This document shows, one piece after another, positions 28,182 to 59,877 of a stretch of DNA of 64,000 nt. The number at the start of each line of letters is the position of its first letter. Position 1 is the first letter of the stretch. The position numbers were made by a program, and so were the translations under genes. The stretch comes from Gammaproteobacteria bacterium (GTDB lineage Bacteria; Pseudomonadota; Gammaproteobacteria; Eutrophobiales; Eutrophobiaceae), in assembly GCA_965220815.1 (NCBI GenBank), contig OZ244846.1:4145045-4209044 (forward strand). Direction: 5' to 3'. The notes under the pieces were generated by a model. The model searched no databases. It was not told where the DNA came from and was given only the letters and a program-made list of their open reading frames with translations.

Positions 28182-28261
28182 GGGGTCAGAGTAAAATCCT
28201 GTAGAATATTGCCAATGGCGAGGTCAGAGATGATTTTACTCTGGCCCCAAACATTGACCCC
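28182..28261. repeat. REP-like palindromic element, long variant
   Basis: GGGGTCAGAGTAAAAT (28182-28197) … ATTTTACTCTGGCCCC (28233-28248), then a terminal TGACCCC. About 35-bp conserved spacer. Lies in the divergent hppD / marR promoter region. Confidence 0.6.
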
Positions 28262-30927: not shown

Positions 30928-31010
30928 GGGGTCAGAGTAAAATCCTGGAAAACATCGCCAGTGGCAGTGCCAGTGGTGATTTTACTCTGACCCCAACATA
31001 TTCTGACCCC
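30928..31010. repeat. REP-like palindromic element, long variant
   Basis: GGGGTCAGAGTAAAAT (30928-30943) … ATTTTACTCTGACCCC (30979-30994) … TGACCCC (31004-31010). Sits between convergent gene ends. Confidence 0.6.
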
Positions 31011-33336: not shown

Positions 33337-33481
33337 GGGGTCAGAGTAAAAATACACAGAGACAATGGGGACGGACTTCAAGTCCGTCCCCGGCATGCCG
33401 AGATGTGTGGGGTCAGAGTAAAATTTCTGGCGAAATTCTTACTCTGACCCCGGAATTCGCCGGAAATTTTACTCTGACCCC
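33337..33481. repeat. tandem cluster of REP-like elements plus an embedded GC hairpin
   Basis: Arms GGGGTCAGAGTAAAA at 33337 and 33409. Right arms (T)TTACTCTGACCCC ending 33451 and 33481. Perfect hairpin GGGGACGGACT-tcaa-AGTCCGTCCCC at 33367-33391. Confidence 0.6.
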
Positions 33482-38356: not shown

Positions 38357-39940
38357 TTATCCGGCTAATGCGGACTTCATCAGGTCCGCACCCTTCTCAC
38401 CGATCATGAGCACCGTGGCATTGGTATTGCCGGTGACCAGGGTCGGCATGACGGAAGCGTCTATGACCCATAACCCGTCAACACCTCTTACCTTAAGGTC
38501 CGGGCCGACAACGGCCTGTGCGTCATGCCCCATCCTGCATGTCCCGACCGGGTGGTACATGGGGAAAGCCGCATCCTTCACGAAGTCCCTGAGTTGATCG
38601 CCGGCAAACATCTCATCATCCGGATGACGCCAGCGCGACAGGTAGCCGGCAAAGGCTGGCTGCTCCGTGATCCTCCTGGCCAACCGGCATGCATCTATGA
38701 GTTGTTCAATATCCTCCTCAGAGTCCAGCATCGGGTAATGAATCCTGGGAGGCGCCAGCGGGTCGGGGGAACGCAAGGTAATCTCTCCCCTGCTCCGAGT
38801 CTGCATCAGGCCGACCGCACCGCCTGCGATCTTTTCTTTGCTGAGGGTGGCGCTGTTGTCACCGATATCGATATGAAACGGCGCCATGGTAACCTGAATA
38901 TTGGGTGTCCTGTATTTCTCTCGAGTGCGGATGAATGCGTGGACGTGGGCGATGGGGGTCGTCAGCAATCCTTTCCCATTTACCAGGAATTGAAACAACT
39001 GCCCCAGATTATGCAACAGGCCGGTCCGGCTCCCCAGGGTCTCGCCGTTAACGTCAAAGGAATAACGGATGCCGGTGTGTTCCTGCAGGTTTTTACCTGT
39101 CCCCGGGGCATCTGCAATACAATCGATGCCCATGCGGTTAAGCACCTGGGCATCCCCGATACCGGACAGTTGCAACAGCTTTGGCGAAGCGATAGCCCCT
39201 GCACTTATGATGACAGCGGAGCGAGCCAGCGCCTTGCGGGGTTGTGTATCCCCGTCTTTGATGAATTCGACACTATTGGCCCTGCGGCCATCAAACAGCA
39301 CACGGGTAACCCGGGTGTTGAGTTGTATTTGCAGGTTGGCCCGTTTCCTTGCCGGACGCAGGTATGCCTGTGCGGCAGACTCGCGCCAGCCCCTGCGCTG
39401 GGCCACCTGGACTAAATCCACCCCTTCATGGTTCGCCCCGTTCAGGTCGTGGCTCCTGGGGATACCCGCCTCCTGCGCGGCCATGAGCCAGGCAAGAGTC
39501 AAAGGACTGTCAACGTGCAGGTCTTCCACCGAGTGGGGGCCTTCCCCACCCCGCCAGTCGTCCCCACCACGGCGATTACATTCCAGCCGTTTGAAACAGG
39601 GTAAAACCGACTCGTAATCCCAGCCATTACACCCCAGTTCCGACCAGCGGTCATAATCGTTGGGGTGGCCGCGAACAAACATCATGCCGTTAATGGCGCT
39701 GCCCCCGCCCAGACAAAGGCCGCTCCACCAGGTGTCCACCTTGCCGGCGCGGGTTGGGTCCGGTTCGGCCTCATACATCCAGTTGAACCTCGGACTGAAG
39801 ACGGCAGCGCCGCTGGCCGCGGGGATACGGCTGAAGGGATGCCTGTCGCTGCCGCCTGCCTCTATCAACAAAACGGAAAGCGAGGGGTCTTCGGACAGGC
39901 GTCCTGCAACTACACAACCGGCTGTACCGCCGCCGACCAC
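38357..39940 (-). CDS. GMC-family FAD-dependent oxidoreductase (choline / alcohol dehydrogenase-like)
   Basis: GGGTAGC FAD motif. GMC signature regions. C-terminal catalytic His region. Only a GTG is available as start at 39940. The in-frame upstream sequence encodes …DAIIEFDIIV without an ATG. Confidence 0.7.
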   Translation of the reverse strand: MVGGGTAGCVVAGRLSEDPSLSVLLIEAGGSDRHPFSRIPAASGAAVFSPRFNWMYEAEPDPTRAGKVDTWWSGLCLGGGSAINGMMFVRGHPNDYDRWSELGCNGWDYESVLPCFKRLECNRRGGDDWRGGEGPHSVEDLHVDSPLTLAWLMAAQEAGIPRSHDLNGANHEGVDLVQVAQRRGWRESAAQAYLRPARKRANLQIQLNTRVTRVLFDGRRANSVEFIKDGDTQPRKALARSAVIISAGAIASPKLLQLSGIGDAQVLNRMGIDCIADAPGTGKNLQEHTGIRYSFDVNGETLGSRTGLLHNLGQLFQFLVNGKGLLTTPIAHVHAFIRTREKYRTPNIQVTMAPFHIDIGDNSATLSKEKIAGGAVGLMQTRSRGEITLRSPDPLAPPRIHYPMLDSEEDIEQLIDACRLARRITEQPAFAGYLSRWRHPDDEMFAGDQLRDFVKDAAFPMYHPVGTCRMGHDAQAVVGPDLKVRGVDGLWVIDASVMPTLVTGNTNATVLMIGEKGADLMKSALAG

Positions 39941-39992
39941 AATGATGTCAAATTCGATGATGGCGTCCCCTGTGTAAGATACCTGGATACCT

Positions 39993-40051
39993 GGGGTCAG
40001 AGTAAAAATTCTCCGAATTTCTTACTCTGACCCCAATGATCCTCTGACCCC
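39993..40051. repeat. REP-like palindromic element, short variant
   Basis: GGGGTCAGAGTAAAAATTCTCCGAATTTCTTACTCTGACCCC, then CTCTGACCCC. Confidence 0.6.
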
Positions 40052-40063
40052 GACTGCTCCCCC

Positions 40064-40552
40064 TTACGGCGTATTGTTATTCCCCATATCCAGGATAATC
40101 TTCCATGTGCCGTCGTCCTGGCGTTCCCATAACAGGATATATTTGCCTTGTCGCGGGTTAGTCCAATTTTCGGCACCTGCGTCTTCAGGAACAAAATTGG
40201 CGACAAAATTGCCGCGTGTGAGCGCCCAGTCGCCCTCCGTAATCACAGAATCGACGGTTACGTCCAGTTGCTCAATATTGAAAGTGCTGTGAACGGTCTC
40301 CGCAAACCGGCGCAGCGCCTGCTTTCCCTCAAGTACCGGTAACGTGTTATGCATGCCGACTGCATCATCGGCAAAGATGTCCAACCAGCGTTCAGTATCA
40401 CCCGATTTATACGGCTTGATATAAGAATTGAGCACCAAATGTTCGAAATCCGGAAGGGGTACATCATGCTGCTCCCGTTTGGAGCAACCAGGCACCAGCA
40501 GCAGTAATACCAACATGAGAATCACTAAGAAATATTTATCCTCCCTGCCCAT
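40064..40552 (-). CDS. SnoaL-like / DUF4440 (NTF2 superfamily) putative lipoprotein
   Basis: N-terminus MGREDKYFLVILMLVLLLLVPGC (lipobox-like). NTF2-like core. Start chosen at ATG 40552. The ORF track begins at TTG 40639. Confidence 0.5.
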   Translation of the reverse strand: MGREDKYFLVILMLVLLLLVPGCSKREQHDVPLPDFEHLVLNSYIKPYKSGDTERWLDIFADDAVGMHNTLPVLEGKQALRRFAETVHSTFNIEQLDVTVDSVITEGDWALTRGNFVANFVPEDAGAENWTNPRQGKYILLWERQDDGTWKIILDMGNNNTP

Positions 40553-40666
40553 GCAATTCAAATAATTATCGGGAGTCAGATAAAGTTGTGTAATCAGCAT
40601 ATCTTCAGTTTCATGATAATAGTTCCCCCATGATAACAACGGACATAGCGATATTAAAGCTACGAA

Positions 40667-41233
40667 ATGGCTGCAATTTATTATCGGACTATGTCATTAC
40701 AACGTATTGACAAAATGCCGGATGCCTGGCATGATGCAGTCATGCCAAAGACCAGCCAGCTTCAAATCCGAATTGATGCCGACCAGAAAGAACGTATCCG
40801 GCAACGCGCGCAGAATGCGGGAATGGATATATCGAAATGGGTGTTGCGCCAACTCCTGCCTCCTGCCGGGGAACGTTTTCAAACGCTTTGCAAAGAACTC
40901 GCAGAAAAGCGCACGCTACGCGCCTACACGCTTGCGGAGTTACACGATTTCTTCAAATGCCTTGAACCACGGGAATTTTCCAGGGCGATGCAATATCCCC
41001 CTGCTGCTCAACTACCGTCCTTTGAAGCAAACTACCTGGCGGCGATGATTGAATATGCCGCTGCCGCAAGAAATGTGCCTGTCCCCGAGTGGGTGAAAAA
41101 TACAGAACCTCTCCAGACGCCCTGGTTTGCTTCATCCCTGCAAGGCCTGCGGTTGTACTTGTTGACACACTCCCCGCCTGCTTTTCGCCGGCGCAACCTT
41201 TTTGTCGACAGCAGTGTCGGAGAACGGATTTAA
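40667..41233 (+). CDS. ribbon-helix-helix (CopG/Arc-like) domain protein with an all-helical C-terminal extension, putative antitoxin / regulator
   Basis: KTSQLQIRIDADQKERIRQRAQNAGMDISKWVLRQLL is a canonical RHH beta-alpha-alpha. C-terminal RLYLLTH (Rx5H). Likely true start at M26 (ATG 40742). Confidence 0.5.
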   Translation: MAAIYYRTMSLQRIDKMPDAWHDAVMPKTSQLQIRIDADQKERIRQRAQNAGMDISKWVLRQLLPPAGERFQTLCKELAEKRTLRAYTLAELHDFFKCLEPREFSRAMQYPPAAQLPSFEANYLAAMIEYAAAARNVPVPEWVKNTEPLQTPWFASSLQGLRLYLLTHSPPAFRRRNLFVDSSVGERI

Positions 41234-41763
41234 TGGCGCTGCAAAAGGATGAGATTCACCGTTTACTGGAACGCCTCAATGATGAACTGGCCCGTGCAGG
41301 TATTACCGGAGAGTTGTACCTGGTGGGTGGCGCCGTTATGTGCCTGGCATTCAATGCGCGCCAATCAACCCGGGACCTTGATGGCTTTTTCAAACCGGCG
41401 CGTGCTGTGCGTTCGGCAGCAAAACGTGTCGCTGCAGCTCTGGGACTGGATGAAAACTGGCTCAACGATGCCGTGAAAGGATACCTGAGCAGTCAGGACG
41501 ACTTTCAGGAATACCTTGATCTTTCAAATCTACGGGTGATGATTGCAGGTCCCGAATACCTGCTGGCCATGAAATGTCTGGCCCTGCGTCTTGGTGAAGA
41601 ATTCCACGATGAGGCTGATGTGCGTTTCCTGCTCCGTTATCTGAATATTCCGAGTTACCAAAAAGCATTGGATATCATCTGTCAATATTACCCGTTGGAG
41701 CGATTCCCGCAAAAGACGCTGTACGCGTTGGAAGAAATGGTAGACGATTTGGTTCCGGATTAG
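41233..41763 (+). CDS. minimal nucleotidyltransferase-fold protein (Pol-beta superfamily; AbiEii / DUF1814-like motif), putative toxin
   Basis: LYLVGGAVMCLAF…RQSTRDLDGFF gives a GG…[ST]xDxD NTase signature. ATG overlaps the upstream stop (TAATG). Confidence 0.5.
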   Translation: MALQKDEIHRLLERLNDELARAGITGELYLVGGAVMCLAFNARQSTRDLDGFFKPARAVRSAAKRVAAALGLDENWLNDAVKGYLSSQDDFQEYLDLSNLRVMIAGPEYLLAMKCLALRLGEEFHDEADVRFLLRYLNIPSYQKALDIICQYYPLERFPQKTLYALEEMVDDLVPD

Positions 41764-41823
41764 CAGGTTGTCCCAGGTTCCATACCATCAATCAGATATG
41801 CCTGAGGAAGCTCTGACTTAGTC

Positions 41824-43359
41824 TCAGAGGTTCCCTGACTTCAGTTTGGCAAGATACTCTTCTTTTATGTGCTTCTTCTTGATCTTGCCGGAATCCTCGC
41901 GGGGCAGCCGATCAACAAACTCATAAATTCCGGGAACCTTATAGTCCGCAATCCTGATCTTGAGATAAGCCGCTACTTCATCTTTGTCCAGCATCCCCGT
42001 ATTCTCGATGATCGCCACCAGTTTTTCGCCGAACTCCGCGTCCGGGATGCCGAATACGGCACAATCGATAACATCTTCCATGGCGAGCAATTCCGCCTCG
42101 ATCTCTGCCGGATAAATATTGACGCCACCGGAAATCACCATATCCGATTGACGGGACGAAACAAACAGGAAACCCTCCTCATCCAGGTAACCGATGTCGC
42201 CTGTAACCAGAAAGCCGTTCTGGTGTAACCCCGAGGCTTTCTGTGCGTTCAGGTAAGTAACACAATCGGTACCCTCATGTTTTACACAGATAATTCCTTC
42301 TTCGAGAGGCTTGAGTCGGTTTCCCCGTTTGTCACGGATTTCAATTGCCACACCGGGAGCGGGGCAGCCGACCGTTCCCGGGCGTTCAAGCCACTGGCGG
42401 GAGGTTGAACAGGTAATGATGCCGGTTTCAGTCATGGCGTAATATTCGTGGATCACGTCTCCCCACCAATCAATCATGTGTCTTTTGACATCTGCCGGAC
42501 AAGGCGCTGCGCCGTGGGTTACGTGAACCAGAGAATCATGCCGGTATTTTGTCCGAACCTCATCGGGTAAGGCCAGCAGCCGCACAAACATGGTGGGCAC
42601 CAGGTGAAGGTGGGTGATTTCATACCGCTCTATCAATGCCAGCAAGCCTTCCGCATTGAAACGCGGCGCCAGGACCAGCGTACCCCCGGATTGCAGGACC
42701 ATGTTGGCGTAGCCGTTGGGCGCGGAATGGTACAGGGGCCCGGTCATTACCGAACGGATGGGGGTTTGGTCGAAGCCCCAGGCATAGCTTGTCCTGGCGC
42801 TGATCCTGGCGGCTATTTCAGGGGTTACGTTGTTGCGCAACACGGCCTTCGGCCTGCCGCTGCTGCCGGAGGTATAAAACAGGGGCGGTCTGAAATTCTT
42901 ATCCAGATATGCATGCGGCCTGCTCTCTTCCATCCAGTCATCCCAGTTCAGGAAACGGGGATCGCGTATATGCTCTCCAGGTTTGGCTCCGTAACCCTGC
43001 AGGATTTCAGCCGGCGGGTTTACCACGACCACTGGGATGTCTTTTATAACCTCCACCAACTCTTCAGTGAGCAAATCGGCATGGACAATTACGGCCCCGG
43101 CCCGGCAATCGGTCAGGATGAAATCGACCTCCGCCGGTTTCAAGTGCCAGTTGATCGGCACTACATCGAAACCGAGGTAGTGAGATGCCTCATGGATTAT
43201 GAAGTAGGGAATATCGTTACGTAACATGACCGCAACGGCGTCATTCTCCCGGATGCCCATGGACTGCAAGCCGGCAGCGACGCGTCGTGCTGCAGCGTCA
43301 ATGTCCGAGACAGAGCAACTTCGCTCGCCAAAGATCAGGGCGCCCGGGGGCAATTTCAC
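41824..43359 (-). CDS. AMP-dependent synthetase / acyl-CoA ligase
   Basis: AMP-binding motif FYTSGSSGRPKAV. A7 region GYGxTE-like and the A10 lysine. Confidence 0.8.
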   Translation of the reverse strand: MKLPPGALIFGERSCSVSDIDAAARRVAAGLQSMGIRENDAVAVMLRNDIPYFIIHEASHYLGFDVVPINWHLKPAEVDFILTDCRAGAVIVHADLLTEELVEVIKDIPVVVVNPPAEILQGYGAKPGEHIRDPRFLNWDDWMEESRPHAYLDKNFRPPLFYTSGSSGRPKAVLRNNVTPEIAARISARTSYAWGFDQTPIRSVMTGPLYHSAPNGYANMVLQSGGTLVLAPRFNAEGLLALIERYEITHLHLVPTMFVRLLALPDEVRTKYRHDSLVHVTHGAAPCPADVKRHMIDWWGDVIHEYYAMTETGIITCSTSRQWLERPGTVGCPAPGVAIEIRDKRGNRLKPLEEGIICVKHEGTDCVTYLNAQKASGLHQNGFLVTGDIGYLDEEGFLFVSSRQSDMVISGGVNIYPAEIEAELLAMEDVIDCAVFGIPDAEFGEKLVAIIENTGMLDKDEVAAYLKIRIADYKVPGIYEFVDRLPREDSGKIKKKHIKEEYLAKLKSGNL

Positions 43360-44398: not shown

Positions 44399-45496
44399 TT
44401 ACTTGTCAATCAGGCCTGCAAGCGCTTGGCGTATAACCTGCTCCGAGCGAAACCATACCGATGCCCGCCATTCCGGATCATCAGGAAAATGGCTCTCCAG
44501 CACTCGTGACTTGATTTCCTTTCCCGGTTCGCTGTCCACGTCACCATGATACGTCAACCAGTGGTCATCGACCAGCGCACGCAGGTTGACGTCCTGAACG
44601 TCGCTGGTGCCAAACTCCAGAACGATGGAAACAATATCCCTGTCATTGCCGGGTTTGCCGTTTGCAAGTACCGCCGACAGGCCGTCGCTGGGATGGCCGG
44701 TCGCGGGATGATGTTGCCGTTCAGGATCGCAGCCCCGTTCACGCGGCGCTACCAGCCACCTTCCGAATATTTCCCTCGCGGCGCGTAACCGCTCACCCGT
44801 ATGCATACATACAGCCATACCATAACCGTAGGGACCCAGGCCTGAATGGTAATCAACATGGCAGACCTTGCGGGCACCTCCGCAATACTTGGACAACAGG
44901 CTGCAAAACAACTCGTTCGACCATGTCGCCCCGTTACCCCCGTAGCCGAATCCTTCCGGGTACACATACTGTCCTCTCATCAGCGCATCAACGAACTTAT
45001 GGTTTTCCTCATCCGATAAGTATCTCGATAACGTGTTGCAGAACCGGGCATACGTCTCTTCCGAAAACAGGTGGTGGATACGCTCATAATCAGGATTTAC
45101 GGGCAACGGTCTGTTGAAATCGACGAAGTTCCGGGCAAGGTCAACGTTATCCTCCGTATTCCGGCGCAGGTGATGTGCGCCCCAAGGGTTGAGCGCGTGG
45201 ATAAAAAGCACGCCTGAGTCCCCCGGTATATCGGCAAACCTGTCCTCCATGAGCAGCCCCGTCTGGCAACCGGAGCCGCACATGAGCTCGGGGCCATGGA
45301 GGCCGGAACTCAGAATCAGCAGCTTATCTGCGCCCTCCTCCCCGATATAAGCGACGTCACAGGCCAGCTCGACGCCACCTGATGCCGATAGCGGGTGAAG
45401 ATGGGTCTCTGTCCTCTGACTTTTTTCCCTGCACGCTGTAAGAAACCGGGATCGCGCACTCTGGTAGTCATGCCTGAAACAGTCGTTTATATCCAT
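44399..45496 (-). CDS. DUF2817 / M14-like zinc carboxypeptidase-fold protein (succinylglutamate desuccinylase / aspartoacylase-like)
   Basis: GLHGPEL (HxxE zinc ligands) and a downstream His. Tight coupling to the upstream AraC gene. Confidence 0.5.
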   Translation of the reverse strand: MDINDCFRHDYQSARSRFLTACREKSQRTETHLHPLSASGGVELACDVAYIGEEGADKLLILSSGLHGPELMCGSGCQTGLLMEDRFADIPGDSGVLFIHALNPWGAHHLRRNTEDNVDLARNFVDFNRPLPVNPDYERIHHLFSEETYARFCNTLSRYLSDEENHKFVDALMRGQYVYPEGFGYGGNGATWSNELFCSLLSKYCGGARKVCHVDYHSGLGPYGYGMAVCMHTGERLRAAREIFGRWLVAPRERGCDPERQHHPATGHPSDGLSAVLANGKPGNDRDIVSIVLEFGTSDVQDVNLRALVDDHWLTYHGDVDSEPGKEIKSRVLESHFPDDPEWRASVWFRSEQVIRQALAGLIDK

Positions 45497-46543
45497 TTAC
45501 ACCGCAATCGGAGCATGTCCGGTCCTTACCTGCCTGGGGGTTACCCCAAAGTGCTTCCGGAACGCAGTGGTAAAATTACTCGAATACTCATAACCCAGGC
45601 TCATGGCGATTTGAGTAATCGTCATTTCCGTATTTGCCAGCAGATCACAGGCCTTCTCCATGCGCGCCCGATGCAGGTAATTATGTACGGTCGTGCCTAC
45701 GGCCTGCCTGAACACCCGCATCAACTGGGTCTCGTTCCAGGACAGGGTTTTGGCCAGTTCACTGATGGTGGGCGCTTTCGACAGGTCATTATCGAGAATT
45801 TCACATATTTCCGCGACGCGTTTGATGTCCCTTTGCCGGAGCGGGGTTTTGTCCGAGCCCGCAGCCGTCCACATTTTTGATAACTGGTCCAGCGTGTAAC
45901 AAAGCAATTCCAGGGTCTTGGCCTCAATCTGCAATTGTTGCAGGCGACCCGTGTAATTCGTCTCGAACAGGGACTTTACCGCAGAGATCATCTCCGGGCG
46001 CATACGCACGGCACAGTAATACATGTCCTTCTGCTCGCCGTACAGGAACTGCCCCAGGGGTGTGGACTTCAATAGCGACGTGCCGGAAATGATTTCTTCC
46101 AGGAACGGCGGCTCACACAACAGGGTGACCGACTGTTCGTGCTGGTGCGCCGGAAAACACTCGATCTTTTTCATGCCCGAAGGCTGGATAAGAACGCCGA
46201 AGGTCATGGGGTCCACCGGCTCAAGTTCTCCCCCCTCGGCGCCTATCTCGCTGCTGCCGCTGTAACGGAAATGGAATTTGACCACGTCATCGCTTTCGCT
46301 CATGTCGCTGTGGGCGTAATCATGTTCCACGTCGCCTATCAGGACCGCCAGCCCTTTCCTGACCATGCAGATGTCTTTTATGCCGTGAGTCTCCGGTACG
46401 GGCGTCGCCAGCCTCAAACCGAAATGACGGTCATAGGGCTGTTGTTCAAGCGGCGCATACTTGGGTGGTATATCCTGGAGCAGTTCAGACGCGGTGTCTC
46501 CCTGTTCAATTCGAACTACGGTTTCCGGTTTGCTTTCAGCCAT
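45497..46543 (-). CDS. AraC-family transcriptional regulator
   Basis: C-terminal AraC HTH (…NYLHRARMEKACDLL…ITQIAMSLGYEYSSNFTTAFRKHFGVTP). Confidence 0.75.
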   Translation of the reverse strand: MAESKPETVVRIEQGDTASELLQDIPPKYAPLEQQPYDRHFGLRLATPVPETHGIKDICMVRKGLAVLIGDVEHDYAHSDMSESDDVVKFHFRYSGSSEIGAEGGELEPVDPMTFGVLIQPSGMKKIECFPAHQHEQSVTLLCEPPFLEEIISGTSLLKSTPLGQFLYGEQKDMYYCAVRMRPEMISAVKSLFETNYTGRLQQLQIEAKTLELLCYTLDQLSKMWTAAGSDKTPLRQRDIKRVAEICEILDNDLSKAPTISELAKTLSWNETQLMRVFRQAVGTTVHNYLHRARMEKACDLLANTEMTITQIAMSLGYEYSSNFTTAFRKHFGVTPRQVRTGHAPIAV

Positions 46544-46636
46544 TAATAAACCTCTACGGTTCTGTTTTGCGCTGTCATTGTCGGCATTCCTGCCAAACGT
46601 ATAATTTTTAACACTGAAAGCAGACTTTATTACATA

Positions 46637-48157
46637 ATGGCACTCATTGACAAACCCGATTGTATGGCCTTAACCATGTTAGCCCATCTACGAAGAAGAG
46701 ATGTATTACGACACCTTGGCGCCCTGGGGGTGACGGGTGCCATCGGCCAGTTGTATTCCGGTTCCCTGTTTGCCGGACCGGACGGTGCTGACGAAAAGCT
46801 GGAACAGTTGGTAACAGGTGACGTCGTCAACCGTAGCGATGACCAGTACGAAGCCTGGCGCAACAGCATGGTCTGGCACCTGAGAAAGCCTGAGCGCTAC
46901 CCGGACACGATCATCCGGGCGCAATCCGAACAGGACGTTATCCGCGCGGTGAAATACGCCACGGACGAAGGACTTAAGGTCTCAGCCCGAAGCAGCGGTC
47001 ACAACTCTACCGGCGCCGCCCTGCGCGACGGCGGCATATTGATTGACCTGGCGCTGTTGCGGGCTGTCGAAATTGATGCTGCTCGTCAAACTGCACGCAT
47101 ACAACCTGCGCTCTGGTCGGAACAGCTTGTGCAGGAAGCCGGCACATACGGCCTCGCGTTCCCGGCCGCCCACTGCCCTACTGTGGCCCTGGGCGGTTAC
47201 CTGCTCGGCGGCGGCATGGGCTGGAATAACGCCCATTGGGGCAGCATCGCCTGTCATTCGATAATAAGCGCTGACATCGTCCTGGCCGGTGGCAGGAAGG
47301 TTACCGCCAGCGCTAATTCTCATCCGGACCTGTTCTGGGCTGTGCGCGGCGTCGGTCCCGGTTTTTTCGGGATCGTCACCGGGTTCGAATTGCAGCTTTA
47401 TCCCTTGCCGGGCGCCATATACACCAGCATGTATATCAGCCCCCTGGACGAACTGCAGACCGTGGTGGCTTCACTGGATGAGCTTAACCGGGTCAAGGAT
47501 GACCGTGTGGAGATACTGGTCCTGCTGATGCACGATCCGCAGGCGCCCGGCGACACACCGCATGGCGAGGCCAAGGTATGTATGGTAGGCGTACAGGCCT
47601 TCGCCGACACGGAAACGGAAGCAAAGTCGATGCTGGCCCCGTTTGCAAAAAGCAAGCTTGCCGCGGCAAGCGTGTTCAAGGTGGAGGAGCAGCCGTCTTC
47701 ATTTGCAAAACTGTATAACCCGGAAAACGTCGATTCCGGGATTGGCCGTTATGCGGTAGATAACATCTGGACCGACGAACCGGGCCGTGCGCTGCTGTCG
47801 CTGGCGGATCATTTCAGGAACACGCCGTCGGCCCGCACCCACGTATTATGCTCGTACGGGGTCAAGGCGGAACTGCGGGATGATGCCTGTTTTTCACGTA
47901 TCGCCGATCACTATGTAGCCAGCTACCTGCTCTGGAACGATGCGGAACACGACGAGGCCAACCACGCCTGGCTGAAACAGACAAACGACCTGCTACAACC
48001 GTACAGCAAGGGCACTTATATCAATGAGATTGAAGCGACTCTGTTTCCGGAGCGGGTCAGGTCCTGTTTTTCCGATGAGAGCTGGGCGCGTCTCGCCGAA
48101 CTGCGTAAAAAATATGATCCCGACAATATCTTTCATACCTGGCTCGGGTATGCATAG
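46637..48157 (+). CDS. FAD-linked oxidase (FAD_binding_4 / berberine-bridge-like), probable Tat substrate
   Basis: N-terminal RRRDVLRHLGALGVTGA twin-arginine-like leader. PCMH-type FAD-binding domain. BBE-like C-terminus. Confidence 0.7.
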   Translation: MALIDKPDCMALTMLAHLRRRDVLRHLGALGVTGAIGQLYSGSLFAGPDGADEKLEQLVTGDVVNRSDDQYEAWRNSMVWHLRKPERYPDTIIRAQSEQDVIRAVKYATDEGLKVSARSSGHNSTGAALRDGGILIDLALLRAVEIDAARQTARIQPALWSEQLVQEAGTYGLAFPAAHCPTVALGGYLLGGGMGWNNAHWGSIACHSIISADIVLAGGRKVTASANSHPDLFWAVRGVGPGFFGIVTGFELQLYPLPGAIYTSMYISPLDELQTVVASLDELNRVKDDRVEILVLLMHDPQAPGDTPHGEAKVCMVGVQAFADTETEAKSMLAPFAKSKLAAASVFKVEEQPSSFAKLYNPENVDSGIGRYAVDNIWTDEPGRALLSLADHFRNTPSARTHVLCSYGVKAELRDDACFSRIADHYVASYLLWNDAEHDEANHAWLKQTNDLLQPYSKGTYINEIEATLFPERVRSCFSDESWARLAELRKKYDPDNIFHTWLGYA

Positions 48158-48168
48158 CATTAATTTTT

Positions 48169-48207
48169 GGGGTCAGAGTAAAACTCTGTGAGTTTTACTC
48201 TGACCCC
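48169..48207. repeat. REP-like element, minimal perfect-hairpin variant
   Basis: GGGGTCAGAGTAAAACT-ctgtg-AGTTTTACTCTGACCCC, a 17-bp perfect stem 12 nt after the oxidase stop. Confidence 0.65.
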
Positions 48208-48231
48208 TACATTACTGGAGGCTCACTGAAA

Positions 48232-48708
48232 ATGCATACAGATAAAGAATATTCTGATCGATTTGCGCAGGAAGTCATCGACCTGCACGTTTTTTTTGAA
48301 GACTGGTTCGGCGGCTACTGCGAGAACAGCGAGGAGGTTTTTGCAGAGCGTCTGCTGGATCGGATGCACGGGGGTTTCAACATTATCCTGCCCGGAGGCA
48401 TGATGATTTACGGGGCCGATTTCTGGCCTGAATTCAGGAAACTGTACGGCAGCAACCCGGATTTTCATATCAGTATCCGCGCCGTTCAAAAGCACCCGCT
48501 TCCCGGTGATTCAATATTTCTGGTGAACTACCAGGAATGGCAGAGGAACGCCCTGCAATCCAAACCACAAGATAACGGGCGGCTGTCCTCGGCTGTTTTT
48601 GTCAACGATGAGGATGCGCCCAACGGCATAAAGTGGTTCCATGTACACGAAACGTGGCTGCCCGATGCCGTTATCGCGGCAGAAACGTACGACTGGCAAC
48701 ACAATTAA
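48232..48708 (+). CDS. hypothetical protein (158 aa)
   Basis: ORF with plausible ATG start, framed between a REP hairpin and an intrinsic terminator. Confidence 0.45.
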   Translation: MHTDKEYSDRFAQEVIDLHVFFEDWFGGYCENSEEVFAERLLDRMHGGFNIILPGGMMIYGADFWPEFRKLYGSNPDFHISIRAVQKHPLPGDSIFLVNYQEWQRNALQSKPQDNGRLSSAVFVNDEDAPNGIKWFHVHETWLPDAVIAAETYDWQHN

Positions 48709-48710
48709 AT

Positions 48711-48745
48711 AAAAGGGGGACAGATTTAAAATCTGTCCCCCTTTT
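48711..48745. terminator. bidirectional rho-independent terminator
   Basis: AAAA-GGGGGACAGAT-ttaaa-ATCTGTCCCCC-TTTT between convergent genes. The T-run overlaps the nucleoside hydrolase stop. Confidence 0.6.
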
Positions 48746-49766: not shown

Positions 49767-49782
49767 GGGAACAATAAAAAAG

Positions 49783-49820
49783 GGGTCAGAGTAAAACTCT
49801 GCGAGTTTTACTCTGACCCC
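49783..49820. repeat. REP-like element, minimal perfect-hairpin variant
   Basis: GGGGTCAGAGTAAAACT-ctgcg-AGTTTTACTCTGACCCC. Lies between the TonB receptor stop and the hydrolase start. Confidence 0.65.
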
Positions 49821-52201: not shown

Positions 52202-52228
52202 GGGGTGATTTTACTCTGACCCCTGAAT
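52202..52228. repeat. REP-like half element
   Basis: GGGGTGATTTTACTCTGACCCCTGAATT, a single arm with a short complementary foot. Confidence 0.5.
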
Positions 52229-52819: not shown

Positions 52820-52886
52820 GGGGTCAGAGTAAAATCTTGAGGAACGTGGCCGATAGCATGATCAGGGGAGATTTTACTCTGACCCC
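52820..52886. repeat. REP-like palindromic element, long variant
   Basis: GGGGTCAGAGTAAAAT (52820-52835), a ~35-bp spacer homologous to those at 28198 and 30944, then ATTTTACTCTGACCCC (52871-52886). Confidence 0.6.
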
Positions 52887-53399: not shown

Positions 53400-53426
53400 C
53401 GTTATTTCTCATCATTAAAATATGCG

Positions 53427-53448
53427 GGGTCAGAGTAAAATCACCCCT
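53427..53448. repeat. REP-like half element
   Basis: GGGGTCAGAGTAAAATCACCCC followed by TGAATT, the mirror image of the copy at 52202. Confidence 0.5.
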
Positions 53449-59830: not shown

Positions 59831-59877
59831 GTATCAGAGTAAACATTCTTCGAATTTCTTTCTCTGACCCCGGAATT
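59831..59877. repeat. degenerate REP-like element (short variant) abutting the IS110 copy
   Basis: GTATCAGAGTAAACATTCTTCGAATTTCTTTCTCTGACCCCGGAATT. Homologous to 33409-33458 and 39993-40034, with the left arm eroded. Confidence 0.5.

Follow-up and report, generated by a model that had tools for sequence, protein, structure and literature searches.

The systems closest to the locus described here are toxin-antitoxin modules built around nucleotidyltransferases (NTases). The AbiE system (AbiEi/AbiEii), known from Streptococcus agalactiae and Lactococcus, was first assigned to type IV and has lately been reclassified as a type VII toxin-antitoxin/abortive infection system. Its NTase, AbiEii, carries the motifs hG[GS] (motif I), an arginine with DhD (II), K..R (III) and +DxxD (IV), and mutation of each of them abolishes toxicity (Dy et al. 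2014, PMC3985639). In MenT1 of Mycobacterium tuberculosis the residues of interest are R37, T39, R40 and D41 (PMC11375011). Antitoxin-induced auto-phosphorylation has been reported for MenA1/MenT1, MenA3/MenT3 and AbiEi/AbiEii, and the mechanistic precedents are found in PMC7450476, PMC10435456, PMC11375011 and bioRxiv 10.64898/2026.01.19.700257. AbiE/MenAT-type NTase toxins occur in abundance; they matter for phage defence as well as for the physiology of M. tuberculosis, and the antitoxins that neutralise them are strikingly unrelated.

The Pfam family DUF6036 (PF19502) exists as a name only, with no function, partner or structure described, and a literature search found neither a paper mentioning DUF6036 or PF19502 nor an experiment on any DUF6036 protein. 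Analysis of a 64,000-nucleotide stretch of gammaproteobacterial DNA (hereafter the window) revealed a two-gene cassette in which an NTase of this family is encoded together with a small DNA-binding protein, and which is probably a toxin-antitoxin module.

A mobile two-gene cassette

The two same-strand open reading frames proposed by an earlier, sequence-only reading of this DNA are real, spanning 40667/40742-41233 and 41233-41763, and they overlap as that reading described, the TAA stop codon of the first sharing one base with the ATG of the second (TAATG). Gene 1 (40742..41233, + strand) codes for a predicted antitoxin/repressor of 163 amino acids, as judged from homolog lengths and a Pfam ribbon-helix-helix (RHH) match. 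Gene 2 (41233..41763, + strand) codes for a DUF6036-family, AbiEii/MenT-like NTase of 176 amino acids, a predicted toxin in view of its motifs and the Pfam matches of its relatives. The start of gene 1 had been placed at 40667; since most homologs are 163 aa long, the true start is almost certainly the ATG at 40742. The 75 nt upstream of 40742 hold the promoter and operator, and the conservation of 'RID' in longer ORF calls is only apparent, being the translated -35 box and palindrome.

The earlier picture of an RHH gene followed by, and tightly coupled to, an AbiEii-like NTase gene is borne out by the homologous loci. Of 80 loci from more than eight phyla, all 80 have a homolog of gene 1 immediately before gene 2. 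Overlaps of 1 or 4 nt occur in 47 of 78 loci, with gaps of no more than 13 nt in the remainder, and the divergences of the two proteins correlate (r = 0.91). In all 78 loci gene 2 is more conserved than gene 1; a toxin more conserved than its antitoxin is the usual pattern. A natural single-chain fusion, RHH-CTD-NTase (P0291), occurs on two contigs from two samples. Stable fusion of a toxin to its antitoxin is unusual for a lethal toxin, and counts against the toxin-antitoxin interpretation.

The pairing extends to distant relatives. DUF6036 homologs of 31-37% identity are located on plasmids of Mycobacterium, Rhodococcus, Brevibacillus and Tessaracoccus, each with a small upstream partner gene, and one distant homolog, on a M. 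intracellulare plasmid, lies within a toxin-antitoxin island beside RES-Xre and PIN modules. A practical annotation rule results: where a 'hypothetical protein' gene precedes a DUF6036 gene, the two are to be taken as cognate partners.

Comparison with two relatives (L002 and L003) defined the extent of the cassette, comprising promoter/operator and both genes, since the only DNA that these loci have in common with the window by blastn is 40678..41781 (+ strand). The L002 match shows 91.7% identity over 40692-41781 and the L003 match 85.7% identity over 40678-41743; similarity fades about 10-15 nt upstream of the operator palindrome and about 20 nt past the stop codon. In L002, a related metagenome-assembled genome (MAG), the cassette occupies another site and is more similar to that of the window than are the flanks, which show 77-84% identity in a different order. 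The cassette was found in at least 585 loci (species-level genomes) of more than eight phyla, among them Gammaproteobacteria, Binatia, Thermodesulfobacteriota, Alphaproteobacteria, Planctomycetota, Nitrospirota, Bdellovibrionales and others, and one MAG carries two copies. The commonest flanking gene family occurs in at most 9 of 80 loci, and no conserved third gene was found in the flanks of these 80 loci. With neighbours differing at nearly every locus, another site in L002 and a patchy distribution across phyla, the pair is horizontally mobile rather than core, in agreement with the horizontal insertion suggested earlier, and the 1.1-kb cassette is a self-contained mobile unit. When an empty site was sought by way of the SnoaL-like neighbour, metagenome contigs yielded only proteins of about 27% identity to it.

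The suggested mode of insertion did not fare as well. The pair had been described as flanked by REP elements; one REP-like palindrome is indeed present upstream, at 39985-40051, belonging to a family with 19 matches in the window where chance would give 0.31, and there is none downstream. Between the upstream element and the pair lies a gene for a SnoaL-like lipoprotein (40064-40639, minus strand), and the element is absent from the near-identical relative L001; REP-mediated insertion is not supported. The abortive-infection or defence label is likewise not borne out: the flanks of the cassette in the window are metabolic genes, no defence neighbour recurs in the 80 loci, and PADLOC returned only AbiEii for gene 2 (E 0.05). 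No defence-island, prophage or plasmid context was detected in the window, and no gene 2 homologs in phage records or IMG/VR viral contigs.

The nucleotidyltransferase and its partner

The GG...DxD signature noticed in gene 2 is conserved, G32, G33, D48 and D50 being invariant even among relatives of 32-38% identity, over which R43 is also invariant and T46 nearly so. All four AbiEii/MenT motifs are present. Motifs I and II, identified by conservation (G32-G33...R43-Q-S45-T46-R-D48-L-D50, 41326..41382, + strand), read L-V-G32-G33, x14, D48-L-D50, with R43; the spacing is x14 and not x15. Motifs III and IV (K114-C-L-A117-L-R119...H125-D126-E-A-D129, 41572..41619, + strand), likewise identified by conservation, include invariant K114, D126 and D129, with A117 and R119 at least 90% conserved. 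This subfamily has His for Lys/Arg in motif IV and a K-to-R spacing of 5 instead of 7, and the distant, actinobacterial relatives read RDxxD, equivalent to the AbiEii '+DxxD'. T46 aligns with T39, the phospho-acceptor of MenT1.

The gene 2 protein of the window scores 15.2 bits (E 0.019) against Pfam DUF6036, the gathering cutoff being 23.6, and has no Pfam AbiEii match at E <= 1. As it falls below the Pfam thresholds, its assignment rests on relatives and motifs. Among 40 relatives at 65-94% identity, 33 match DUF6036 at E <= 0.01 (26.4 bits for P0058), and 23 match AbiEii (PF08843) at E <= 0.01, several of them above the 22.5-bit cutoff (29.0 bits for P0054); the AbiEii matches are partial, covering profile positions 3-56 or 117-204 of 238. 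By tblastn, gene 2 matches NCBI-named DUF6036 plasmid genes over its full length (E 1e-14 to 1e-23), and these homologs score 29-36 bits on the Pfam model. Membership of DUF6036 is thus established, at the level of sequence, by transitive homology. A relaxed tblastn search with a DUF6036 protein retrieved no AbiEii-annotated genes, and therefore the link to AbiEii rests on the Pfam HMM matches and the motifs. The enzyme family comprises more than 6,400 clusters at 90% identity.

Structural searches added little. The gene 2 profile (A2) matched no PDB sequence, MenT and AbiEii included, even at E <= 10, and searches of PDB sequences with A2, with the gene 1 profile (A1) and with a pair of distant DUF6036 proteins yielded nothing relevant. 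The AF2 model of gene 2 has a pLDDT of 78, falling below 50 over residues 42-52, and Foldseek retrieved no NTase with it from PDB or BFVD.

The N-terminal RHH proposed for gene 1 was confirmed: residues 2-38 (40745-40855, + strand) match the NikA-like model PF21983 with 27.5-27.7 bits against a cutoff of 27. The same model matches 40 of 40 members of the gene 1 family, while the RHH models of TacA1 and ParD match 19 and 16 of the 40, respectively. The remainder of the protein, residues 41-163 (40862-41230, + strand), is a C-terminal domain of about 120 aa with no match in Pfam, NCBIfam or PDB. It is all-helical and well folded in the AF2 model, with a pLDDT of about 90 against 83.7 for gene 1 overall, and nothing significant was found by Foldseek of this model against PDB (best E 1.8). 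The combined PADLOC and NCBIfam searches pointed to no convincing family, PADLOC giving nothing for gene 1 and NCBIfam at best MobA (E 8e-4); tblastn of gene 1 against plasmids gave no match. No AbiEi Pfam family was matched among the 40 members, placing gene 1 outside AbiEi/COG5340.

A profile of this partner domain retrieves 919 clusters at 50% identity. The most conserved motif among 40 homologs is S144-P-P-A-F-R-R-R-N-L-F-V-D-S-S158 (41171..41215, + strand), in which F148, R149, R151, N152, L153, F154 and D156 are invariant. The invariant polar residues of the domain (D69, E95, Y98, R149, R151, N152, D156 and R162) exceed the needs of a passive inhibitor, which counts against the toxin-antitoxin interpretation. 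In the plasmid loci L081-L083 and on contig L084 the partner domain lies beside the NTase without an RHH; where distant DUF6036 genes on plasmids have RHH-less partners, these still carry its motif, as SPPAFRRRGIFITDSS and SPYEFKIRNIFVKENA. Alignment of the gene 1 partner domain with these RHH-less partners by hhalign gave a probability of 94% (E 9e-8). The RHH is fused to the partner in the proteobacterial and Binatia subfamily and not in the plasmid subfamilies.

The earlier description of the module as unclassified therefore needs dividing. Relatives of the NTase had already been named DUF6036 family nucleotidyltransferase by NCBI; what is undescribed is the partner domain, for which there is no family name, structural relative or literature, and the system as a whole.

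Operator, promoter and proposed mechanism

A sigma-70-type promoter (40707..40735, + strand) precedes gene 1, with the -35 hexamer TTGACA at 40707-40712, a 17-nt spacer and an extended -10 element, TG-CATGAT, at 40730-40735. Its promoter scan score is 10/12, with TG preceding the -10, and the ATG of gene 1 begins 6 nt past the -10. The -35 hexamer is embedded in the right arm of a candidate operator of 21 bp, the 9+9-bp palindrome TGTCATTAC-AAC-GTATTGACA at 40692..40712 (no strand assigned), which occurs once in the window against 0 copies expected by chance. The consensus TGTCAATAC-N3/4-GTATTGACA, with up to two mismatches, precedes gene 1 in 78 of 81 loci spread over many phyla, and in the same 78 of 81 it overlaps the -35 box; a palindrome at this position is a hallmark of autoregulation. 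The start codon follows the -35 hexamer at a distance of 28-30 nt in 75 of 78 loci, too close for a Shine-Dalgarno sequence to fit, and the mRNA is therefore predicted to be leaderless. An Rfam search of 39800-42000 gave nothing but one sub-threshold chance match.

As the sequence shows, the sigma-70 promoter, with its -35 box inside the palindrome, drives a bicistronic mRNA that is predicted to be leaderless, and on it translation of gene 2 is coupled to that of gene 1 through the TAATG overlap. Beyond this, the following scheme is proposed. The gene 1 product would dimerise by its RHH, bind the palindrome and repress its own operon, while its conserved C-terminal domain would bind and neutralise the gene 2 product. 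The NTase, once released from its partner, would halt growth by extending an RNA with nucleotides, the likeliest target being tRNA 3' ends, as with the MenT toxins. Its neutralisation may take the form of active-site occlusion or of antitoxin-induced auto-phosphorylation of T46. The toxicity of the gene 2 product is predicted from analogy, and the proposed neutralisation by its partner has indirect support in the strict co-occurrence, the correlated divergence and the natural fusion. The cassette may serve in addiction or stabilisation, in the stress response or in phage defence.

The generic layout of toxin-antitoxin loci is present, namely a two-gene operon for small proteins with translational coupling and a palindromic operator at its own promoter, and so is the mobility typical of them, in the form of variable neighbourhoods and a patchy distribution. 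The cassette is accordingly regarded, with moderate confidence, as an autonomous, horizontally mobile two-gene unit of toxin-antitoxin type. The best reading, favoured to a similar degree on the analogies set out below, is that of an AbiE/MenAT-like toxin-antitoxin module which regulates itself and whose antitoxin belongs to a new family.

Alternative explanations and comparison with known systems

Several other explanations were considered. It is unlikely that the locus is no toxin-antitoxin system at all and consists of a mobile benign enzyme with its regulator, the NTase modifying a small molecule, an antibiotic or RNA, or tuning the repressor as a switch. The Pol-beta NTase clan contains antibiotic nucleotidyltransferases, Makarova 2009 proposed the same alternative for mobile NTase pairs, and the MenT homolog MenT2 has no detectable toxicity; the metabolic flanks in the window and the tolerated fusion protein would also suit such a pair. 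Against it, no metabolic or resistance neighbour recurs across the 80 loci, and multi-copy occurrence, scattering over phyla and relocation are typical traits of selfish modules. In addition, the distant mycobacterial homolog lies inside a toxin-antitoxin island, and the nearest family by motifs consists of toxins.

A further, rather speculative possibility is that the 120-aa partner domain represents a new fold which does more than plug the enzyme and, through the invariant SPPxFRRRNLFVDSS, forms a covalent-modification switch with the DUF6036 NTase. Two forms of such a switch, both tentative, can be envisaged: T46 would be auto-phosphorylated at the prompting of the partner, or the partner would itself be nucleotidylated by the NTase. 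Either form might couple the modification directly to an RHH repressor acting on a cross-phylum operator and leaderless promoter. If true, the cassette would amount to a regulatory or toxic circuit of undescribed type, self-contained and independent of the host, whose target is possibly not tRNA.

Reversed polarity is somewhat less probable still. The C-terminal domain of gene 1 would then be toxic and the NTase would be a type VII-like antitoxin, as in HEPN-MNT systems, nucleotidylating for example Y98 or S157. Small NTases do serve as antitoxins in those systems, and MNT-HEPN pairs and RHH-HEPN fusions are both covered by Makarova 2009; the firmly predicted fold of the C-terminal domain, its many invariant polar residues and the natural fusion of both parts in one protein fit this arrangement as well. 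However, the NTase has the AbiEii/MenT-specific motifs III and IV, which are marks of toxins, and it is the more conserved partner in every one of the 78 loci, whereas the DNA-binding domain and the upstream position, both antitoxin-like, belong to gene 1. Neither the window protein nor its 40 relatives match NTP_transf_2, which also speaks against reversed polarity and, together with motifs III and IV, against gene 2 as a classical MNT.

The HEPN reading of the gene 1 tail, in which gene 1 would be an RHH-HEPN fusion RNase paired with an MNT and RLYLLTH its Rx5H motif, is very improbable and was rejected. R137 of 'R137-LYLLT-H143' is nearly invariant in 40 homologs, the C-terminal domain is all-helical and archaea possess RHH-HEPN fusions; the idea fails because the His is not conserved, its column reading H/N/R/C/Q/I/G/S across the 40 homologs. 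Moreover, HEPN Pfam families match 0 of 40 gene 1 members, Foldseek against PDB found no HEPN structure, the RHH-less plasmid partners lack an Rx4-6H motif entirely, and the NTase is DUF6036/AbiEii-like, not a COG1708/COG1669 MNT. Finally, a plasmid mobilisation remnant, in which gene 1 would be a relaxosome accessory protein of the NikA/MobA type in line with its best matches, is scarcely credible, as the NikA-like match spans just the 37-residue RHH, which TacA and ParD antitoxin models match too, no relaxase or transfer gene occurs in the window flanks or recurs in the 80 loci, and the contig on which the window's gene 2 product is recorded measures 4.35 Mb.

Under the toxin-antitoxin interpretation, the cassette would define a large branch of AbiE/MenAT-type systems. 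Its partner domain would be a third or fourth independent antitoxin solution, with which it can be asked whether induced auto-phosphorylation is universal. Compact at 1.1 kb, with an operator, a promoter and a predicted leaderless start that are conserved between phyla, the cassette may help to show how such units function whatever the host, and may be of use as a portable regulatory element.

Among known systems, HEPN-MNT type VII modules resemble the cassette in being mobile two-gene modules of a small Pol-beta-fold NTase and a small helical protein. They differ in gene order and roles, the MNT antitoxin lying upstream and the HEPN toxin downstream, and also in that the NTase of the cassette is of AbiEii type, not NTP_transf_2, and Rx4-6H is unconserved in gene 1.

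The resemblance to MenAT concerns the enzyme. MenT1 is a compact NTase with T39/R40/D41, K137 and D152, to which T46/R47/D48, K114 and D129 of gene 2 correspond, and the spacing from K to D is 15 residues in both. T46 and K114 lie 68 residues apart and their MenT1 counterparts 98, which makes the core of gene 2 shorter; the gene 2 profile matches no MenT chain in PDB at E <= 10, and Foldseek retrieved none. MenAT also supplies the proposed mechanism, tRNA 3'-end extension with antitoxin-induced auto-phosphorylation of an active-site Ser/Thr. MenA1, at 68 aa, has no DNA-binding domain, and MenA3 is AbiEi-like; since MenA antitoxins come from unrelated families, a further antitoxin family fits the pattern.

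The overall organisation is closest to that of AbiE. Both systems are bicistronic, with a two-domain antitoxin (N-terminal DNA-binding, C-terminal antitoxicity; predicted for the cassette) upstream and an NTase with motifs I-IV downstream, gene 2 relatives matching PF08843 above cutoff. The AbiE antitoxin binds inverted repeats in its own promoter, where the cassette has its candidate palindromic operator. In contrast to AbiE, the cassette has a single palindrome, at the -35 box, instead of two inverted repeats, its mRNA is predicted to be leaderless, and phage defence is not indicated by PADLOC, flanks or viral homolog searches. The AbiEii profile has 238 positions, whereas the gene 2 product has about 176 aa and is a member of a distinct Pfam family, DUF6036. 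No similarity of the gene 1 C-terminal domain to AbiEi/COG5340 was detectable by Pfam or by Foldseek against a PDB copy expected to hold 6Y8Q, and the cassette antitoxin carries an RHH where that of AbiE carries a winged HTH.

Gene structure and control region

ORF analysis of the window revealed two same-strand ORFs in the region. The longest ORF of gene 1 starts at position 40667 and would yield a protein of 188 aa; this start was rejected, since homologs of gene 1 are mostly 163 aa long and alignment conservation extends from Met26 of the longest ORF onward, which places the start at the ATG at 40742 (gene 1, 40742-41233, plus strand). The TAA stop codon of gene 1 (41231-41233) and the ATG of gene 2 (41233-41235; gene 2, 41233-41763, plus strand) have one base in common, confirming the TAATG overlap described in the sequence-only reading.

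A palindrome, TGTCAATAC-N3/4-GTATTGACA, is present upstream of gene 1 in 78 of 81 loci; it occurs once in the window, at 40692-40712, and is a candidate operator. The promoter scan identified a good sigma-70 promoter here (TTGACA, 17-nt spacer, TG-CATGAT; score 10/12) whose -35 hexamer is provided by the right arm of the palindrome, and the start codon of gene 1 (ATG or GTG) lies 28-30 nt past this hexamer in 75 of 78 loci. The mRNA of the two genes is predicted to be leaderless, since transcription is expected to begin at the start codon itself, leaving no space for a ribosome-binding site. Anatomically, the cassette is built like an autoregulated toxin-antitoxin operon. Because of this arrangement ahead of the ATG, gene 1 is often given too early a start by gene callers, and the false N-terminal extensions seemingly have 'RID' or 'VNTHVLT' in common, both strings being the translated palindrome.

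Gene 2 and an AMP-binding ligase gene converge on a short inverted repeat, CTCTGA-N-TCAGAG (41800-41830), which is possibly a terminator common to both; it lies outside the REP-like family described below and was not called by the terminator scan.

The nucleotidyltransferase and its partner domain

Residues 2-38 of gene 1 form a ribbon-helix-helix (RHH) domain, matching the Pfam NikA-like model at 27.5 bits (cutoff 27). All 40 family members searched match this model, and the antitoxin RHH models ParD and TacA likewise match many of them. The remaining 120 residues gave no match in Pfam, NCBIfam or PADLOC, nor in a profile search against PDB sequences. AlphaFold2 predicts a confident helical domain here (pLDDT about 90), and a Foldseek search of the gene 1 model against the PDB returned nothing similar (best E-value 1.8); this partner domain has no name and no detected structural relative. 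Invariant among homologs are FE(A)NY (94-98), PWF (127-129) and the C-terminal motif SPPxF-R-R-R-N-L-F-V-D-S-S (144-158).

The gene 2 protein of the window alone gave weak matches to DUF6036 (E 0.019), DUF2204 and PADLOC AbiEii (E 0.05). Among 40 relatives, 33 match DUF6036 and 23 match AbiEii at E <= 0.01, some exceeding the Pfam gathering cutoffs, and one homolog is named 'DUF6036 family nucleotidyltransferase' in one source. Plasmid genes of the same name in Mycobacterium, Rhodococcus, Brevibacillus and Tessaracoccus were recovered by tblastn over the full length of gene 2 at 31-37% identity. Gene 2 is assigned to the DUF6036/AbiEii-type nucleotidyltransferases (NTases) through these relatives, its own matches being weak.

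AbiEii/DUF1814 toxins are defined by four motifs (Dy et al. 2014, PMC3985639), with which the family alignment was compared. Motif I corresponds to G32-G33, motif II to R43 ... D48-L-D50, motif III to K114-x-x-A117-x-R119, and motif IV to H125-D126-x-x-D129 (RDxxD in actinobacterial relatives); G32, G33, R43, D48, D50, K114, D126 and D129 are invariant down to 32-38% identity. T46-R47-D48 parallels T39-R40-D41 of MenT1, and the 15-residue spacing from K114 to D129 equals that of K137-D152 in MenT1 (PMC11375011). The family profile matched no PDB sequence, and the AlphaFold2 model (pLDDT 78, below 50 exactly across residues 42-52) retrieved no NTase in Foldseek; support for the NTase fold therefore comes from sequence motifs and HMM matches rather than from structure.

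The DUF6036 genes of actinobacterial and Bacillota plasmids all follow a tightly coupled 'hypothetical' gene encoding 114-161 aa without RHH, whose product ends in SPPAFRRRGIFITDSS, SPYEFKIRNIFVKENA or SPASFALHGILIEESS. The RHH-less partner loci comprise plasmids NZ_CP012886.2, NZ_CP144923.1 and NZ_CP019608.1 (L081-L083) and one contig (L084), where the partner is likewise followed by an NTase. The plasmid partners align with the gene 1 family in hhalign with 94% probability (E 9e-8). When 1.8 billion representatives were searched with a partner-domain profile, 919 50%-identity clusters were recovered, in two architectures: RHH-bearing proteins of about 163 aa and RHH-less ones of about 123-131 aa. 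A natural single-chain RHH-partner-DUF6036 NTase fusion of 344 aa (P0291, L085:3001-4035) keeps the operator palindrome upstream (L085, about 2950-2971); such fusions occur on two contigs, L085 and a second JGI contig, from two samples, and would offer a convenient template for modelling the gene 1-gene 2 complex. It is the partner domain that defines the system.

The M. intracellulare plasmid copy adjoins toxin-antitoxin modules of the RES-Xre and PIN kinds. The RHH-less partner gene of Brevibacillus is itself preceded by another small overlapping gene (L082:1748-2092), whose product might act in trans as the DNA-binding component.

Distribution, coupling and mobility

One genome per species was scanned, giving at least 585 loci, in Gammaproteobacteria, Binatia, Thermodesulfobacteriota, Alphaproteobacteria, Planctomycetota, Nitrospirota, Bdellovibrionales, Gemmatimonadota and others; the closest relatives among the matches listed are Gammaproteobacteria MAGs. 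Neighbourhoods were analysed for 80 of these loci, and a gene 1 homolog lies directly upstream of the gene 2 homolog in every one. In 47 of 78 loci the two genes share 1 or 4 nt, and any gap between them is at most 13 nt; their divergences correlate (r = 0.91), the NTase being always the more conserved (mean identity 66% vs 51%). The commonest flanking gene family occurs in at most 9 of the 80 loci, such recurrences reflecting lineage synteny, and no third component was found in the flanks. Gene 1 and gene 2 are an obligate unit. The MAG JA6.bin17 carries two diverged copies (L037 and L070; 81% amino-acid identity for gene 1, 88% for gene 2). A HigA-like HTH antitoxin gene is present near the cassette in five of the 80 loci (L020, L035, L059, L073 and L074), which suggests that the cassette sometimes clusters with other toxin-antitoxin modules.

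In the window, the neighbours are ordinary metabolic genes: a GMC oxidoreductase (38357-39940), a SnoaL-like lipoprotein (40064-40639) and the AMP-binding ligase (41824-43359), all on the minus strand, and further a PLP-dependent enzyme, a DUF2817 protein and an AraC-family regulator. A 4.35-Mb contig on record carries the exact gene 2 protein. The relative L001 shows the same gene order as the window. In L002, a more distant MAG locus, the cassette lies within the same syntenic block but displaced by about 6 kb, flanked by the homologs of window 45478-48124 and 48214-48740, and is 91.7% identical to that of the window vs 77-84% for the flanks; in L003, it is the only DNA shared with the window. 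The similar stretch extends from some 10-15 nt ahead of the palindrome to about 20 nt past the stop codon; the mobile unit is roughly 40678-41781. No terminal repeats or recombinase were seen at this unit, and no homologs were found in phage genomes or viral contigs.

A minus-strand DUF2817 gene (44399-45496, 365 aa, Pfam E 9.7e-83) is missing from L001 and L002, both collinear on either side; this is a one-gene indel.

A REP-like family (GGGGTCAGAGTAA[A/G]A..., mostly inverted pairs), also present in L002, has 19 matches in the window vs 0.31 expected by chance, including copies at 28182-28248, 30928-30994, 33337-33481, 39985-40051, 48169-48207 (a pair), 49782-49820, 52208-52223, 52820-52886, 53426-53441 and 59856-59871. 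The copy at 39985-40058 is a recent insertion, since it is missing from the otherwise 99%-identical L001. In L002, the cassette fills the intergenic space (L002:5238-6575, against window 48125-48213) that holds the pair 48169-48207 in the window. Intergenic REP-bearing gaps may be landing places of such cassettes; no junction sequence common to these two sites was seen.

Interpretation and comparison with known systems

The cassette is probably a toxin-antitoxin system with the NTase as toxin. What the sequences show is the build of the cassette, the coupling of its genes, the geometry of operator and promoter, its mobility, the assignment of the NTase at family level and the link between NTase and partner domain; DNA binding, toxicity, target and mode of neutralisation are inferred. 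The N-terminal RHH of gene 1 would bind DNA, and its C-terminal domain would neutralise the NTase. By analogy with MenT1/3/4 and AbiEii, gene 2 may block translation via extension of tRNA 3' ends (PMC7450476, PMC10435456). Gene 1 would neutralise the NTase through binding, possibly by inducing auto-phosphorylation of the conserved T46, for which an antitoxin precedent exists (PMC11375011; bioRxiv 10.64898/2026.01.19.700257).

A benign pair of enzyme and regulator is unlikely, and reversed polarity of the HEPN-MNT kind is somewhat less likely again. The sequence-only reading of an RHH-HEPN protein with a minimal NTase (MNT) is very improbable: it took 'RLYLLTH' of gene 1 for a HEPN-like Rx5H motif, whose Arg is near-invariant, but the His column varies among homologs (H/N/R/C/Q/I/G/S), and the motif was rejected. 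A mobilisation remnant is scarcely credible.

The most distinctive features of this putative toxin-antitoxin family are its size, an operator and predicted leaderless promoter conserved across phyla, and a partner domain modelled with confidence that has no detectable relative. A literature search found no paper mentioning DUF6036 or PF19502. From work on MenAT and AbiE it is established that the antitoxins of such NTase toxins are unrelated to one another; one more antitoxin family is therefore expected rather than surprising. The cassette resembles AbiE in that a two-domain upstream protein, with predicted N-terminal DNA binding and C-terminal neutralisation, is followed by an AbiEii/MenT-type NTase; it differs in having an RHH where AbiE has a winged HTH, and in its unrelated, undescribed neutralising domain.
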